Shown here piece after piece: positions 803 through 6,710 of a DNA stretch of 47,008 bases. The notes beneath the pieces were generated by a model. That model had not been told where the DNA came from. It made no database searches and saw only the letters and a list, made by a program, of their open reading frames with translations. Source of the DNA: a virus. Both the position numbers and the translations under genes were made by a program. Every line of letters begins with the position of its first letter. The stretch's first letter is position 1. Where the stretch lies: the UHGV virus genome UHGV-1362026; one strand, 5' to 3'.

Positions 803-1266
803 TGTCAGCGAAATTAAGAGGTATTCAGGAGGCAATCAGGAAAACTGAGCAGATAGTTGGCACTATCACGGCAGAAAAAGCAGTGAGAGCAATAAAAAGT
901 GCCAACTATATTATTCGCACAGAAGCGGCCACAATAACGCCAATTGATACATCAAACCTTATCAATAGCCAATATGATACGGTGGAGGTATCAGGGATGA
1001 GGATAACAGGGAAAATAGGTTATTCTGCTGATTATGCGCTATATGTTCACCGCGCGCCGGGGACACTAAAAGGAAAGCCACGCGCTCATTTTGGCAAGAC
1101 CAATAACCTTTCAGATTTCGGCCCGAAGCAAGTTAAGGAATTTGGCGGCGGCTCGCTGAAAGGTAACTACTGGGACCCAAATGCCGAACCACAATTCCTG
1201 ACCAAAGCAGCGCAACGCACAAAAGACCTTGTTGATGGCGTAATTAAGAAGGAGATGAAACTGTGA
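802..1266 (+). CDS. HK97 gp10-like tail component (tail completion)
   Basis: 154 aa; motif TPIDTSNLINS resembles the gp10-family signature PvDTGnLrnS; start overlaps the upstream stop. Confidence 0.6.
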   Translation: MSAKLRGIQEAIRKTEQIVGTITAEKAVRAIKSANYIIRTEAATITPIDTSNLINSQYDTVEVSGMRITGKIGYSADYALYVHRAPGTLKGKPRAHFGKTNNLSDFGPKQVKEFGGGSLKGNYWDPNAEPQFLTKAAQRTKDLVDGVIKKEMKL

Positions 1267-1637
1267 ATATGCTTGAACTGGTTGATGCATATCTTCAGGA
1301 TGCCGGATTGTATGATGGCTGGACTTCGCAGTTGCAGTTCTGGAATGACACCGGAGATGGCAACGAGCAATTTATTGTTCTGCAATCCAACGGCGGCACG
1401 CAGGTGATGGATGGCCTCGGTGGTGACTTCTATTTCTCGCTGTATGTTGTTGGGAAACAAGGCCAGTACAACGTAGCTGATGTCGATGCGAAGGCCAATG
1501 AGATTATCGAATACATCAAAACACATCCGATTGATTCATGCGTTAACTACATCCAGTTGCAAGCGCCGCTCGGTAGGCCAATGCTGACAGAAGAAAAAAG
1601 ACCAGTGCATGAACTGCTATTGCGTGCTGTGAAATAA
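1263..1637 (+). CDS. putative tail terminator protein (gpU-like by position)
   Basis: 124-aa ORF directly upstream of the major tail protein gene; ATGA overlap with the upstream gene. Confidence 0.4.
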   Translation: MNMLELVDAYLQDAGLYDGWTSQLQFWNDTGDGNEQFIVLQSNGGTQVMDGLGGDFYFSLYVVGKQGQYNVADVDAKANEIIEYIKTHPIDSCVNYIQLQAPLGRPMLTEEKRPVHELLLRAVK

Positions 1638-1672: not shown

Positions 1673-2192
1673 AGCATTGCCAGCGTGCTTTCTTAACATC
1701 CAGCCCCGTAACCCATACATACCCCTATATATGATTGCGATAATGCTGGATGTTAAGTGTTGTGGTGACAGGAATCGAACCTGCTTCCATCGGTGCGCTG
1801 CCGATTACAGTACGCGAGGCGGTCAGTTACATGACTAGTATTTTCACTGTCGCCTATCTGCTATCTCGCCATTGAGCTTCACCACAACGGAAAGAGCACT
1901 GCTTGTGATACTCCGCGAGCGATACATACCTCTGGCTAGGAAATACATTACGCATTCACATCTTTCTCACCGCGCCGCCAAGCGCGTGCAATGCCCTTAC
2001 CTGTTATGTTCCCTGACTTATTAATCACACCTCAGGGAAGCAGTGCGCCGAATTTGCTTACAAGGAGTCGGAATACCTTACTGACTTACAGGCTATTACG
2101 CCGCAATCAGAACAACATCATCGTTTTCATTTATCTTTGTGGTAAGTTTATAAAAAGTCAGCAAAGTCTCTCACGAAAACTATCTGAAATAC

Positions 2193-2236
2193 AATCTACA
2201 CCACAAAATAATCACTGTCAACACCTGTGATATAAT
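2193..2236. promoter_or_regulatory. divergent promoter module, copy 1
   Basis: Minus strand: TTGACA (rc of 2216-2221), 17-nt spacer, TAGATT (rc of 2193-2198), pointing left. Plus strand: extended -10 TGaTATAAT (2228-2236) about 36 nt before the ATG at 2273. A near-identical module recurs at 3587-3635. Confidence 0.55.
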
Positions 2237-2272: not shown

Positions 2273-2989
2273 ATGGCTATTTGTGCAAATGATAAAGGCG
2301 TTCTTGTCGGTCGCATGACCCGCCTGTTCCTTGCTGAAGGGTGCGGTGACGCAGTTCCGTCAGCAGAAGACTGGAAATATTTAGGCTCAACCACCAGTAA
2401 AGGCGTGGACTACTCGCCGCAGACTACCACCTCGGAGGCAGACACCACTGGCGGCTTCGTTTCCACTCTCGTTACCAGTTCTGATATGACCATCAGCGCA
2501 GAGGTTGAAATCCGCAAGAATGACCCGAGCGATGAATTTGGCTTCCATCGTCTGGTTGAGATTTACGCCACTGAACTGAAGGCGCGTCGCCAGCCTTCCT
2601 TGTGGGTGCGTCAGGTGACTGGTGCAACTATCGTTACCGCGTACTGCAACATCACCAGCATCAGCTACGAAGGCGGCACGAATGACATCGTTACTGGTAG
2701 CCTTGAGTTCAAGGTTTACGATTCTGACAGTGTCACCGTTGAAAGCCTTGAGCCTCTGGCATTCACTACAGACTTGCCATCAACTGGCACTGCTGGCAGC
2801 CCGTTAACTGTTGCTGTTGAAGGTGGCGTCGCTCCTTACACTTATGTATGGCGCAAAGATGGCGCGGTAGTTAGTGGTGAATCCGGTGCAACACTGTCAA
2901 GCCCTACCGCTGGTGTGTATACCGTCACGGTAACTGATTCGTCTACCGACCCGGAAATTATCATCAGCACGGCTTGCACCGTATCCTGA
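2273..2989 (+). CDS. major tail protein with C-terminal Ig-like (Big_2-type) domain
   Basis: 238 aa; C-terminal LPSTGTAGSPLTVAVEGGVAPYTYVWRKDGA is typical of Ig-like domains on lambda gpV-type tail tube proteins; lies between neck and chaperone/TMP genes; own promoter and strong terminator. Confidence 0.75.
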   Translation: MAICANDKGVLVGRMTRLFLAEGCGDAVPSAEDWKYLGSTTSKGVDYSPQTTTSEADTTGGFVSTLVTSSDMTISAEVEIRKNDPSDEFGFHRLVEIYATELKARRQPSLWVRQVTGATIVTAYCNITSISYEGGTNDIVTGSLEFKVYDSDSVTVESLEPLAFTTDLPSTGTAGSPLTVAVEGGVAPYTYVWRKDGAVVSGESGATLSSPTAGVYTVTVTDSSTDPEIIISTACTVS

Positions 2990-2992
2990 TAA

Positions 2993-3024
2993 AGAAAAAG
3001 CCCCGAAAGGGGCTTTGTTTTATT
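2993..3024. terminator. bidirectional rho-independent terminator
   Basis: aaagaaaaaGCCCCgaaaGGGGCtttgttttatt, with A-run upstream and T-run downstream. Confidence 0.8.
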
Positions 3025-4371: not shown

Positions 4372-6710
4372 TGGCTGAAGAAGTCGGCGGAATTGTCTAT
4401 GAAGTTGGGATGGATGTTAAAGGCCTGAAAGCTGGCGCGACAACAGCCGGTAAGACTTTAGATGACCTTGAATCATCACTAAACAAGACTACCGGAGAAC
4501 TCAACAAGCTGGACAAAGGCGCGCGCAACGCTGGCAGCGGAATGAAGAATGCTGGCGGCGCAGCTTCAGGGCTTAAAACCAGCATGTCGATGTTGGCTGG
4601 CGCAATATCCGTATCACTGATTATCGAATGGGGAAAGCGATTCCTTGAGGTTGCTGATAACATGACGCAGCTTCAGGCAAGGATTGCCCGCCTGTCAACT
4701 GACGCGAAAACCGCGAATGAAACATTCAGTTCACTGGCAAATATCGCCTCAACCACTGGCGCAAGCCTGAGTGATACCACGAGGCTATGGGAAACATTGA
4801 CGTCATCACTGAAAGAGGCTGGCGCGACAAATGCGCAGGTTCTTAACCTTACCGATACCCTGCAAAAAATAGGTCGAATTGGCGGATCATCAACCGAAGA
4901 AATGGCGAATGCATTACGTCAGTTCGGTCAGTCAATAGCATCTGGCACAATCCGCGCAGAAGAGTTCAACTCCATCCTTGAGCAGATGCCTGAACTTGCA
5001 CGCCAGATAGCCGCTGGTCTCGGTATTTCAATGGGTGAACTTCGCGCCAGAATGCTTGACGGAAAACTGACGGCAGAAGATGCACTGAATGCCATTCAGG
5101 ACAGGACAAGTGTGGTCAATGCTGAGTTTGCAAAACTACCGCGCTCTATATCTCAGGCGACTGGTAGTCTTGAAACATCATTTGCAAAAATGATAGCAAG
5201 CATAAACGAAGCAACCGGAGCCAGTTCCACTTTTGTTTCTGTTATTGATTCCATCACTTCAGCAATAAACAGACTTACTGGTCAATCTGTAAGTGCGGCA
5301 GAGGTTATTTCTGATTTGACGTCAACTGCAGAAATGTTCAGTCGCAGGGCGAGAACTTGGTCATGGGTTGGCGTTGACGGATGGGCGGCACAAAATCAGG
5401 CGATAGCGGCGGTAGCAAATCAGGCTGCAACTTTGGTCTCAGATATGGATGCCGTAACGAAGTCAACAGGAGAAGCAGCAGAAGCTCAGGCTCATTTGAC
5501 AGTGCCGCAAACACCACCAAAAGACGGGAAAGGAAAGGGCAAAAGCGCGGAAGAACGGCAAGCTGAGTCAGTAGCTGAAAAGCTGGAGAAATTACGCCAG
5601 CAAACCATGCTCAATGCCACATCTACCAGTGAACTATCCCGCGAACAGGCAATTCTCAACGCGCAGCAATCGCTTGGCAAAGCTGCCACTCAGGAGCAAA
5701 TAAAACTGGCTGGCGAGTACGCTGCGAAGATTTGGGACCAGAAGAATGCACTGAAGGAACAGGCGGCTGCGGAGAAAGAAAAGCAGCGCATAGAACAATC
5801 ATATCAGGGATTGCGCGCCATTGCGTCGCCAACATCTGGCATTGATAGTGAATACCAGCAACGCATGGCTGACCTTGACGCCTACGCCGCAGCATATCCG
5901 CAGAAAATTACGGAGATTGAGCAGACTCGCGCAGCAATTGAAGCGCAATACCGACAGCAGCGACTTGAAGCAATGTGGCAGGAGTGGAGTCAGCAAAGCG
6001 CAGCCACACAAGCGGCGGCGGCGGCGTTTGATGCTTTCGGGCAGACCGCTGGAAATGCGCTTACTGGTATCCTTACTGGCTCAATGTCTGTATCAGAGGC
6101 TCTGCGATCAATTGGCTCAAACATCCTGTCCAGTGTTATCAATGCGTTTGTGCAAATGGGTATAGACTGGGCCAAATCAGCTATCATGGGTGCAGCAGGA
6201 ATGACAGCAGCATCAGGCATGGCAGCGGCTCAGGCGCAAATTATTGCAGCGGCTATGGCACCAGCAGCGGCAATGACCTCACTTGCTACGGCTGGGGGCA
6301 ACGCACTGCCAGCACAGACTGGCATTGCTTCAACCGTTGGTCTTGCAAAGACACTATCCATTGCTGGCGCGCTGAAAAATGGCGGACCAGCTCAGGAAGG
6401 CTCAATGTACAGGGTGGGCGAGAATAACCTCCCTGAGATATTCCAGGCGTCAAACGGTCATCAGTACATGATACCGGGAGACAGCGGGCGCGTAATTAGC
6501 AACAAAGACCTGACAGGCGGCAGTAGTGGCGTTGTGGTTTATAATAGCGTTTACAATAATTCAAGTAATGCTAGCGCAACAAGCAGAGCCACTGATAACG
6601 GTGATGGCTCGATAACTATTGAGACATTTATATCCGATATGAATGAAGGAGGCCCAATGAGTCAATCTATCTCAAGGAACTTTAATACCAACAGGAGAGC
6701 AACCGAATAA
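4371..6710 (+). CDS. tail tape measure protein
   Basis: 779 aa, Ala/Gly/Gln-rich and helical, N-terminal region like lambda-family TMPs (...EEFNSILEQMPELARQIAAGLGIS...), C-terminal glycine-rich tract; largest gene of the tail operon. Confidence 0.85.
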   Translation: MAEEVGGIVYEVGMDVKGLKAGATTAGKTLDDLESSLNKTTGELNKLDKGARNAGSGMKNAGGAASGLKTSMSMLAGAISVSLIIEWGKRFLEVADNMTQLQARIARLSTDAKTANETFSSLANIASTTGASLSDTTRLWETLTSSLKEAGATNAQVLNLTDTLQKIGRIGGSSTEEMANALRQFGQSIASGTIRAEEFNSILEQMPELARQIAAGLGISMGELRARMLDGKLTAEDALNAIQDRTSVVNAEFAKLPRSISQATGSLETSFAKMIASINEATGASSTFVSVIDSITSAINRLTGQSVSAAEVISDLTSTAEMFSRRARTWSWVGVDGWAAQNQAIAAVANQAATLVSDMDAVTKSTGEAAEAQAHLTVPQTPPKDGKGKGKSAEERQAESVAEKLEKLRQQTMLNATSTSELSREQAILNAQQSLGKAATQEQIKLAGEYAAKIWDQKNALKEQAAAEKEKQRIEQSYQGLRAIASPTSGIDSEYQQRMADLDAYAAAYPQKITEIEQTRAAIEAQYRQQRLEAMWQEWSQQSAATQAAAAAFDAFGQTAGNALTGILTGSMSVSEALRSIGSNILSSVINAFVQMGIDWAKSAIMGAAGMTAASGMAAAQAQIIAAAMAPAAAMTSLATAGGNALPAQTGIASTVGLAKTLSIAGALKNGGPAQEGSMYRVGENNLPEIFQASNGHQYMIPGDSGRVISNKDLTGGSSGVVVYNSVYNNSSNASATSRATDNGDGSITIETFISDMNEGGPMSQSISRNFNTNRRATE

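Follow-up and report, generated by a model that had tools for sequence, protein, structure and literature searches.

A covarying and so far unannotated family of tRNA-like phage RNAs, found in an RNA island of virus genome UHGV-1362026

Phage tRNA genes are usually explained by codon supply or by escape from tRNA-cleaving defences. Here we describe R1, a tRNA-like element of 126 nt on the minus strand (1761–1886) of virus genome UHGV-1362026, whose complete analysed stretch of 47,008 nt is called the window in the following. The closest precedent in kind for R1 is rnaC of phage T4. Like R1, the T4 species 1 and 2 RNAs (rnaC and rnaD) are small stable phage RNAs (119–139 nt) in tRNA clusters, and they are co-transcribed and processed with tRNAs, with rnaC ending in a T-arm-like hairpin. 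Against the covariance model that we built from R1 homologues, rnaC reaches 14.6 bits, which is the level of ordinary T4 tRNAs, and no homology is detectable; we also know of no description of a palindromic loop or a five-helix cloverleaf in rnaC or rnaD. The tRNA-like domain (TLD) of transfer-messenger RNA (tmRNA) is a tRNA mimic as well, in which a long helix stands for the anticodon arm and of which phage-encoded examples exist. TLD-only RNA has been reported to inhibit trans-translation (PMC4131195), and Hudson, Lau and Williams (2014) list no phage ssrA outside the mycobacteriophages and Bacillus phage G. R1 differs from the tmRNA TLD by a U3–A70 pair instead of G3:U70, a complete D stem, an additional hairpin and the lack of a tag frame between the acceptor strands.

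Bacterial Y RNAs (YrlA, Yrn1) are non-coding tRNA mimics that keep the D-loop and T-loop tertiary nucleotides, as R1 does. Their tRNA-like domains are recognised by tRNA enzymes, and YrlA, which occurs in phages too, is permuted (T arm, acceptor stem-loop, D arm), linked to Ro60 and encoded beside Ro60/rsr (PMC4201824). R1 follows the normal tRNA order, has no associated protein gene and occurs in phages of E. coli K-12. To our knowledge this host has no Ro60. Its order of arms and its neighbours, which are tail genes or Q and holin, led us to reject R1 as a YrlA-type Y RNA. With mascRNA/MALAT1, where RNase P cleavage sets the end of the neighbouring RNA, R1 shares a tRNA-like fold within a longer transcript, but mascRNA is eukaryotic and about 61 nt long and R1 carries much extra conserved structure beyond RNase P recognition. 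The HIV-1 dimerisation initiation site resembles R1 in a self-complementary, purine-flanked 6-nt loop sequence that varies and yet stays palindromic; its context is entirely different, and for R1 a dimer is only predicted. Finally, R1 has in common with canonical and class II tRNAs the 7-bp acceptor, the GG of the D arm, the UUCGAYU of the T arm, the 7/5 stack and shared loci, whereas its 126 nt, its five arms and its A8 set it apart; its only 7-nt loop lacks U33 and purine 37 and the loop of the other arm measures 14–18 nt.

An earlier note, made from the window sequence alone, had drawn attention to a tRNA-like element of about 128 nt at 1761–1888. The acceptor strands, D-arm-like sequence, long hairpin and T arm that it named are all present on the minus strand, but the proper span is 1761–1886, with 1887–1888 belonging to the leader, outside R1 proper (the stem is extendable through them to 9 bp), and one hairpin had been missed. 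Read from the sequence, the acceptor 5′ strand UGUGGUG (1886–1880) pairs with the 3′ strand CACCACA (1767–1761), which is followed by ACAC, so CCA is not encoded. The D arm GCUC-AAUGGC-GAGA (1877–1864) carries the GG that is invariant in the family, although in the window, and only there, its last stem pair is a G·A mismatch. The extra arm (1861–1807) consists of H1 (1861–1858 with 1810–1807), a conserved internal loop AUA/(G)CGCGUA and H2, the long imperfect hairpin GGCGACAGU...ACUGACCGCC (1854–1818), which has the self-complementary hexamer ACUAGU (1839–1834) at the centre of its apical loop. The hairpin missed before, AUCGG-CAGCGCA-CCGAU (1805–1789), with 5 bp and a 7-nt loop, lies 4 nt (GGAA) ahead of the T arm GCAGG-UUCGAUU-CCUGU (1784–1768).

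In order to collect the family we used BLAST with 171 nt and two independent pattern scans of IMG/VR, one with a 3′-half motif and one with a 5′-half motif. The two scans gave 62 distinct full-length members of 124–127 nt, which is too long for a canonical tRNA (70–95 nt), as the earlier note had said of the window element. From an alignment of 33 diverse members (A3) the six-helix structure was counted column by column: 92.8% of the cells are paired compared to 32–44% with the partners slid by 1–3 columns, and 19 of the 34 base pairs show changes on both sides, with none of 500 shuffles reaching the observed values. Pairing amounts to 97.8% in the acceptor helix (three pairs changed on both sides), 99.2% in the almost invariant D stem (none), 85.6% in H1 (three of four), 80.6% in H2 (eight of nine; register shifts lower this percentage) and 100% in both the 5-bp hairpin (two) and the T stem (three of five). 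Compensatory variants include UGAGGUG/CACCUCA, AGUGGUG/CACCACU and UGUGAUG/CUUCACA for the acceptor, and AUCAG/CUGAU, AUUGG/CCAAU and AUAGG/CCUAU for the 5-bp hairpin. H2 contains G·U pairs, which shows that the RNA rather than the DNA is under selection. The bases of the tRNA elbow are invariant, namely GG in the D loop, with GCUC-AAYGGC-GAGC as the family D arm, and UUCGA in the T loop (UUCGAYU). The covariance model gives 123–138 bits for the family and 12–35 bits for genuine tRNAs; the window copy scores 130 bits (E 1e-30) and shows the complete set of defining features, i.e. six helices, the YAKCGCA loop, the AUA/GCGCGUA internal loop and the apical palindrome, with one mismatch in the D stem. 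This confirmed that R1 is real, a covarying family of tRNA-like phage RNAs that has escaped annotation until now.

BLAST identities are 94–96% in Skate, Seszw, INT55/59 and CECAV_048, 83.5% in ST1UNAM, 92–93% in lambdoid HK75, P22-like 611R6 and Lambdavirus PDP110P1, which are unrelated to the window phage, and 81% in Pantoea phage PdC23, and the homology block stops 2 nt past the acceptor 3′ end. The conservation in related phages that the earlier note had asked about is therefore found in Skate-like phages and extends to unrelated types: R1 is carried by Skate-like phages of Salmonella, by phages and prophages of the lambdoid and P22-like types, by one Pantoea phage and by contigs of IMG/VR, and the HK75 type is present in 158 of 5,426 complete E. 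coli genomes (about 3%). A 17-mer scan of genome contigs, which says little on host range, returned nearly exclusively chance matches and two real ones, a Klebsiella pneumoniae prophage and a lambdoid-like contig. No record annotates R1 correctly; in the sampled rows of RefSeq/PGAP annotation the E. coli copies carry no feature but one coding sequence for a 'hypothetical protein'. The 58-nt 'tRNA-Ser' of GenBank record PQ186186.1 (21833–21890; L005 887–944) covers no more than the 3′ portion of one R1 copy and is a mis-annotation, an artefact of a relaxed tRNA search.

The window region is 90–95% identical to Skate-, Seszw-, Akira- and Jersey-like siphophages of Salmonella and E. coli, and the same gap holds, again on the minus strand, tRNA-Met in Akira, tRNA-Ile in ZCEC08 and tRNA-Arg plus tRNA-Ser in ASO78B. 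As these relatives keep tRNA genes there, the gap is a conserved RNA island of this phage group and not an anomaly, and to call it unusual, as had been done before, was misleading. In HK75 and 611R6, R1 is encoded on the strand of the late transcript, with antiterminator Q/tR′ on one side and the holin gene on the other, and between those flanks Sf6 and S137 have tRNA-Thr and tRNA-Asn; two tRNA genes are also found at the 5′ end of the late operon of phage L (PMC8022706). In contig L129 tRNA-Arg(UCU) and tRNA-Met start 7 nt downstream of R1. R1 is interchangeable with true tRNA genes at the same loci and occurs inside tRNA arrays as well. The P22 small RNA P22E, which comes from the same lambdoid slot, differs in sequence and is not R1.

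The extra arm and the hairpin following it distinguish R1 from a tRNA. H1 begins 2 nt after the D stem, the internal loop is strict with AUA on one side and (G)CGCGUA on the other, and H2 comprises 9–10 bp with an apical loop of 14–18 nt. Across lineages the apical hexamer reads ACUAGU, GCUAGC, UCUAGA, UCGCGA, ACCGGU, UCCGGA or UCUGGA and is self-complementary in all 33 members of A3 (one via G·U), two of its three positions covarying (pair 50–55: 16 UA, 14 AU, 3 GC; pair 52–53: 21 UA, 9 GC, 2 CG, 1 UG). Its pairing is found in 100% of the cells compared to 24–41% in five of six slid controls, the sixth of which rests on one pair, and every one of the 62 distinct members possesses a perfect 6-nt palindrome in the apical region. 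As a 6-nt palindrome cannot pair inside one hairpin loop, a kissing dimer is the simplest reading, and two R1 molecules would most likely dimerise by such a loop–loop kiss, for which we computed hexamer duplex energies of −3.6 to −8.7 kcal/mol. The hairpin at 1789–1805, together with the 4-nt 'variable loop' GGAA, is placed like an anticodon arm relative to the T arm, and in tRNA numbering its loop reads Y32-A33-(G/U)34-C35-G36-C37-A38. Both of the resulting triplets, GCG and UCG, correspond to arginine anticodons, and Y32 and A38 also agree with a tRNA, whereas A33 and C37 are invariant. A decoding tRNA needs U33 and a purine at 37, thus R1 should not decode. Its architecture can be read as a cloverleaf like that of tRNA-Arg into which an arm of 57 nt is inserted at position 26, or as a class-II-like tRNA with a hugely extended anticodon arm and the 5-bp hairpin as 'variable arm'; a tertiary pairing between the GCGC of the loop and the GCGC of the internal loop, both invariant, is possible. 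The conserved unpaired segments of R1 showed no complementarity above shuffles to E. coli tmRNA or to the tag-frame RNA described below.

The standard detectors do not recognise this family. ARAGORN made no call on the window element, Rfam gave no match on R1 at gathering thresholds, and with permissive E-values the only match was tmRNA (9.7 bits, E 0.15, gathering 47), while the Rfam tRNA model (RF00005) stayed below 9.7 bits against a gathering threshold of 29. In intron mode at default threshold ARAGORN called three of the 62 members, tRNA-Arg being proposed in a few; at -ps80 the identities (Ala, Arg, Thr) disagree and the intron positions (29–37) differ, the tmRNA mode made no call on R1 and the mitochondrial mode gave likewise none or inconsistent ones. 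A low-threshold ARAGORN pairing, AUAGG/ACUGU, was dropped for H1 (GCAG/CUGY), which covaries. We also rejected tmRNA (RF00023 and relatives) as identification, as pair 3–70 is U–A in 31 of the 33 aligned members and A–U in two and as the 112-nt interior holds no tag frame in addition to the low score, and the 8/4, 9/3 and 8/5 geometries of allo-tRNA and tRNA-Sec, as the eighth pair in the minimum free energy (MFE) fold of the window is missing in relatives and the 7/5 stack covaries. With the tools silent and the fold energy no better than that of shuffles, the window sequence alone was inconclusive, and single-sequence folding was not counted as evidence for R1. Two of the computational checks proposed in the earlier note have to be seen in this light: the covariance-model search, whose silence it had taken as speaking against the element, indeed found nothing in Rfam, which is uninformative because the R1 family is simply absent from there, and folding gave no significant energy; the helices are backed by covariation in the alignment.

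The gap that hosts R1 measures 635 bp (1638–2272) and lies between the genes for a tail-completion protein (1263–1637, plus strand) and the major tail protein (2273–2989, plus strand). It had been described as free of open reading frames (ORFs), and there is indeed none above 79 aa. The leftward promoter and the transcript of about 550 nt predicted earlier also found support, as the sigma-70-type promoter TTGACA-17-TAGATT (2221–2193, minus strand, 10/12 matches) is invariant in six relatives and homology with unrelated phages starts at about 2184, its predicted +1. The hairpin expected downstream exists together with a U run, at 1657–1632. It forms a predicted intrinsic terminator on the minus strand with the G+C hairpin GCCGC-CUCGU-GCGGC and then UUUAUUUAUUU, and is probably bidirectional as the plus-strand gene ending at 1637 is also closed by it. 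These signals support a predicted RNA unit of about 545–550 nt. Between R1 and the terminator there is a 13-bp perfect inverted repeat, CUUAACAUCCAGC...GCUGGAUGUUAAG, with a 40-nt loop (1757–1692, minus strand), which is kept in all six aligned relatives whether R1 is present or not. The heptamer UGUGGUG appears again in the promoter spacer (2197–2203, minus strand) and ACCACA again at 2137–2143, just upstream of the tag frame, and variants of these repeats are present in pYD38-A and KpV2811; they could pair with each other or with the R1 strands if transcription starts further upstream.

Upstream of R1 the same predicted transcript contains a second RNA, which we call MLD RNA (2184–1990, minus strand). 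It begins at the predicted +1 and is composed of an anti-tmRNA 5′ domain (2182–2151), a tag-like frame GAA...GCG UAA UAG (2128–2093) and closing plus pseudoknot-like helices (2080–2004). BLAST found homologues with 70–93% identity in 550 phage records from unrelated families, including the N4-like phages PGN829.1, Pollock and Bp4, the Vi01-like phages Ag3, Menlow and phage 38, FelixO1-like phiEa104 (within its tRNA array), Klebsiella phage KpV2811 and Vibrio phage pYD38-A; it is also present in the late leaders of lambdoid prophages. It is annotated nowhere, and its Rfam scores are all below gathering (tmRNA_permuted 23–31, beta_tmRNA 18–22 and alpha_tmRNA 20.3 bits). The tag frame has no start codon, is always exactly 10 codons plus stop, with double stop codons, and exists in 19 distinct nucleotide versions encoding 12 peptides, the other two frames being broken by stops. 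The peptides include ANDDVVLMAA, ANEEMYLAVA, ANDDLMLMAA, ANDEQFLAVA and ANDAQFLAVA, that of the window being ENDDVVLIAA; the ssrA tag of E. coli is ANDENYALAA. The end of the frame lies inside a covarying helix followed by a pseudoknot-like helix pair (96.5% of cells paired versus 31–51% slid). A tRNA-like domain of MLD RNA, within the same RNA or in a permuted arrangement, was looked for and not found. In T4 rnaD (L164 2054–2172) a CCCUGAG...UUAAUAA resembles the CCCUGAGGUGUGAUUAAUAA motif in the last pseudoknot-like hairpin of the tag RNA (window 2037–2011), which may be chance.

The conserved 5′ domain of MLD RNA (GAUAGUUUUCGU..GCGAC.UUUGCGG..UUUUUA) corresponds in reverse complement to tmRNA nt 68–108. 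This segment spans the 3′ half of pseudoknot PK1, an A-rich stretch, and the resume codon together with codons 1–6. Tested against E. coli K-12 ssrA, with the consensus taken from L003, L073, L190, L162, L159, L160 and L163, the antisense alignment scores are 15–22 compared to 8.3 ± 1.3 for shuffles, with the sense orientation at background; the antisense score was reached by none of 1000 shuffles in six of nine variants and by one of 1000 for Ag3. RNAduplex placed the best site from tmRNA nt 55–66 onward in nearly all variants. This complementarity suggests that MLD RNA hybridises to host tmRNA and presents its own tag frame, which would block or replace the host template. A literature search on anti-tmRNA RNAs, phage tRNA-like RNAs and the R1 sequence found no description of either RNA. 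As MLD RNA lies upstream of only nine of 142 R1 copies and most MLD RNAs occur without R1, the two are independent modules.

The modular layout became visible in an alignment of the gap in six relatives (A2) and by inspection of lambdoid and metagenomic loci. In the window a 'punctuation' hairpin (1998–1892, minus strand) precedes R1: AAGGGCAUUG (1998–1989) pairs, as read from the sequence, with CAGUGCUCUU (1901–1892) and the leader UCCGU comes next. Both strands are kept in Skate-like phages and in HK75, whereas the loop varies, and the general layout is (ACAACAGG)UAAGAGCAUUG, a variable loop, CAGUGCUCUU(U/A)(C/U)CGU and then the module UGUGGUG-AA...CACCACA-ACAC. The form (ACAACAGG)UAAGAGCAUUG-variable loop-CAGUGCUCUUUCCGU stands ahead of each RNA module in Skate-like phages and lambdoid late leaders, e.g. 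in L006 at 2955–3015, and is possibly a processing site for RNase III or RNase E. An alternative interior of the closing stem has a 5′ hairpin loop GGCUGA complementary to a 3′ hairpin loop UCAGC and no Rfam match, and judging from this pairing it may be another elbow mimic. It was found in ZCEC08, ASO78B, L157 (1577–1792), L185 and prophages of about 180 complete E. coli genomes, and in L003 and L004 (alignment A2, columns 590–720); pYD38-A (L161 1792–1897) has yet another interior in which the GGCUGA/UCAGC motif is only partial. The closing stem covaries around these other interiors too, for example as UGUGCUG/CAGCACA. 'Empty' cassettes in L194 (about 4398–4411) and L181 show after the leader only UGUGG-CGA-CACAAC or UGUGGCAGCACAAC, which suggests that modules are inserted and deleted at the base of the closing stem.

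Further candidate RNAs were seen at other loci. ORF-free regions of about 1.9 kb in Shigella phage Ag3 (L159 853–2705) and PGN829.1 (L160 994–2889) hold tag RNA, tRNA-like pieces and a partial STnc100 match (33.7 bits) and are probably large arrays of small-RNA cassettes. Just upstream of its tag RNA phiEa104 (L163 1254–1421) has an RNA of about 165 nt whose acceptor is GGGUGAU/AUCACUC; it also possesses a T arm and a D-arm motif similar to that of R1, and its GCCA end is encoded. At the corresponding place Ag3 (L159 1304–1371) has a mini tRNA-like element of about 68 nt without anticodon arm; ARAGORN called neither of them.

The copies of both RNAs in the window itself carry several substitutions at positions that are otherwise invariant or nearly so. 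At 1864 the window has A instead of the C of the family, giving the G·A mismatch at the last pair of the D stem, whereas the other 61 distinct members read GAGC, GAGU or GAUC there (pair 10–24 in A3: GC in 32, other in one, the window). A second change in R1, G to U, sits beside the internal loop at a position that is nearly invariant in the family. In MLD RNA we found GCGAC→GAGAC, GCGG→GCUG, UAGAAAC→UAUAAAC, CUGACC→CUUACC, GCA→GAA in the resume codon and AUG→AUU, and because of these substitutions its complementarity to tmRNA is down to near background. The changed positions in both RNAs (1864, 1816, 2167, 2160, 2149, 2144, 2127 and 2105) are mostly G-to-T or C-to-A and may reflect relaxed selection, mutational bias or sequence error. 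The family-level conclusions are independent of the window copy.

Starting from sequence, conservation, structure and genomic placement of R1, and from the absence of canonical tRNA and tmRNA features, we infer how it might be transcribed, processed, dimerised and targeted. We favour, with a probability of about 0.55, that R1 is a functional gene for a non-decoding tRNA mimic which is cut out of a multi-RNA transcript by tRNA-processing enzymes and is probably dimeric. Leftward transcription from the TTGACA-17-TAGATT promoter would give a multi-RNA precursor of about 545 nt, RNase P would cut at the acceptor 5′ end, with its site predicted between 1887 and 1886, the 3′ trailer would be trimmed and the host nucleotidyltransferase would add CCA, as none is encoded. 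The mature RNA would retain the 7-bp acceptor stacked on the 5-bp T stem and the elbow of D-loop GG and T-loop UUCGAYU, with a usable anticodon loop replaced by the two-part arm with the palindromic loop and by the hairpin of 5 bp and 7-nt loop. In this form it would have no part in decoding and might bind, titrate or recruit a host factor recognising tRNA shape, for which a tRNA-targeting defence nuclease, a synthetase such as arginyl-tRNA synthetase (ArgRS) or a processing or modification enzyme are candidates. A wider version of this idea, which we regard as less likely than not, sees R1 as a trans-acting, dimerising tRNA mimic and as one module of a hitherto unrecognised system of exchangeable small-RNA cassette arrays by which enterobacterial phages would manipulate host translation and RNA surveillance. 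Such arrays would occupy lambdoid late leaders, the tail-gene gap of Skate-like phages and the tRNA regions of N4-, Vi01- and FelixO1-like phages; the anti-tmRNA neighbour might block or replace the host template, and R1 might be aimed at a factor recognising tRNA, e.g. a tRNA-Arg nuclease or ArgRS.

Several observations weigh against the favoured non-decoding mimic. R1 has A8 instead of the near-universal U8 and U1–A72 as first pair, and in the family the discriminator base is A, C or U, no CCA is encoded and the trailers vary; thus efficient aminoacylation and even standard processing are not assured. In one subfamily the acceptor helix runs 7–10 bp further, and there the RNA may remain part of a longer transcript in which small ORFs follow immediately. 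The MFE of the window copy (−37.6 kcal/mol, z = −0.99 versus shuffles) is unremarkable, and this copy may be impaired by its broken D-stem pair and other changes. The UGUGGUG...CACCACA stem encloses R1, a different RNA of about 105–215 nt or almost nothing, and as the same stem frames such different and even empty interiors, part of the R1 conservation may be due to a function in processing or as a cassette instead of an action in trans.

Because of these interchangeable interiors our main rival explanation is a pure processing signal, in which the fold attracts RNase P in order to set the ends of neighbouring RNAs and the excised piece has no further role. R1 does lie at boundaries, with the tmRNA-like RNA preceding it and tRNAs, an inverted repeat or small ORFs following it, the closing stem and the abutting 5-bp hairpin (7+5 stack) are kept while the interior is swapped in ZCEC08, ASO78B, pYD38-A and about 180 E. 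coli prophages, and the conserved punctuation hairpin ahead of each cassette fits processing too. RNase P, however, needs just the acceptor/T stack and the elbow, which leaves the YAKCGCA loop, the AUA/GCGCGUA loop and the palindrome unexplained, and the empty cassettes (UGUGG-CGA-CACAAC) cannot be RNase P substrates and yet keep their flanks; we consider this explanation unlikely. Considerably less probable is that R1 is the acceptor half of a split phage tmRNA, which would be charged and work with the tag RNA of the same promoter. The tag frame lies 248 nt upstream of R1 in the same transcription unit, tmRNA is the sole Rfam match on R1 (9.7 bits, E 0.15), non-canonical tRNA-like elements adjoin the tag RNA in phiEa104 and Ag3, and a TLD-only phage molecule is known from mycobacteriophage DS6A (PMC4131195). 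Nevertheless, tag RNA is near only nine of the 142 R1 copies and most tag RNAs lack R1, pair 3–70 is U–A and not G:U, a full D arm is present along with an arm where SmpB would sit, R1 is complementary neither to the tag RNA nor to tmRNA, and the tag RNA is antisense to host tmRNA, pointing to the latter as its partner.

Of the three options that the earlier note had left for the element, namely a tRNA carrying an insertion, a remnant derived from a tRNA and a distinct small RNA, the last is borne out by a conserved, covarying family in unrelated phages. The first describes the architecture only, because neither an anticodon nor an intron can be assigned consistently to the members. As a functional claim it would mean a decoding tRNA, tRNA-Arg(GCG/UCG) or class II, from which the insertion is spliced or in which it is tolerated, and the canonical cloverleaf order, the exact anticodon-arm geometry of hairpin 1805–1789 with Y32, A38 and an Arg-type GCG/UCG, and the tRNA-Arg calls by ARAGORN in intron mode for a few members would agree with it. 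It is made very improbable by the invariant A33 and C37, by A8 in place of U8, by intron calls in only 3/62 members with mutually inconsistent low-threshold identities and intron positions, by 'insertion' helices that covary and so are under strong structural selection, by the lack of any group I intron or other ribozyme match in Rfam and by the Rfam tRNA score below 9.7 bits (gathering 29). A remnant, i.e. a decaying tRNA pseudogene or a functionless att-site scar, is the least probable explanation and we reject it, since purifying selection on the structure is evident from the compensatory changes. Phages and islands do integrate at tRNA 3′ ends, the window copy has several unique substitutions and one GenBank record places a 58-nt 'tRNA-Ser' fragment inside R1, but double changes compensate each other in 19 base pairs over dozens of lineages, R1 is kept in virulent phages without integrase and at lambdoid positions that are not att sites, and its full length is always retained. 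Very recent copies as a way to save this idea are excluded by the identity range of 81–96% and the varied helices.

In summary, the tRNA slots of phages also hold a conserved tRNA-shaped RNA that is unable to decode. R1 is common, with about 3% of the complete E. coli genomes and many biocontrol Salmonella phages carrying it, and yet invisible to tRNAscan-type tools, to Rfam and to the NCBI pipeline; a covariance model is now available for its annotation. R1 also led us to the modular organisation of these non-coding islands and, if the proposed pairing with host tmRNA is true, its neighbour MLD RNA would be the first phage RNA known to target trans-translation via base pairing.

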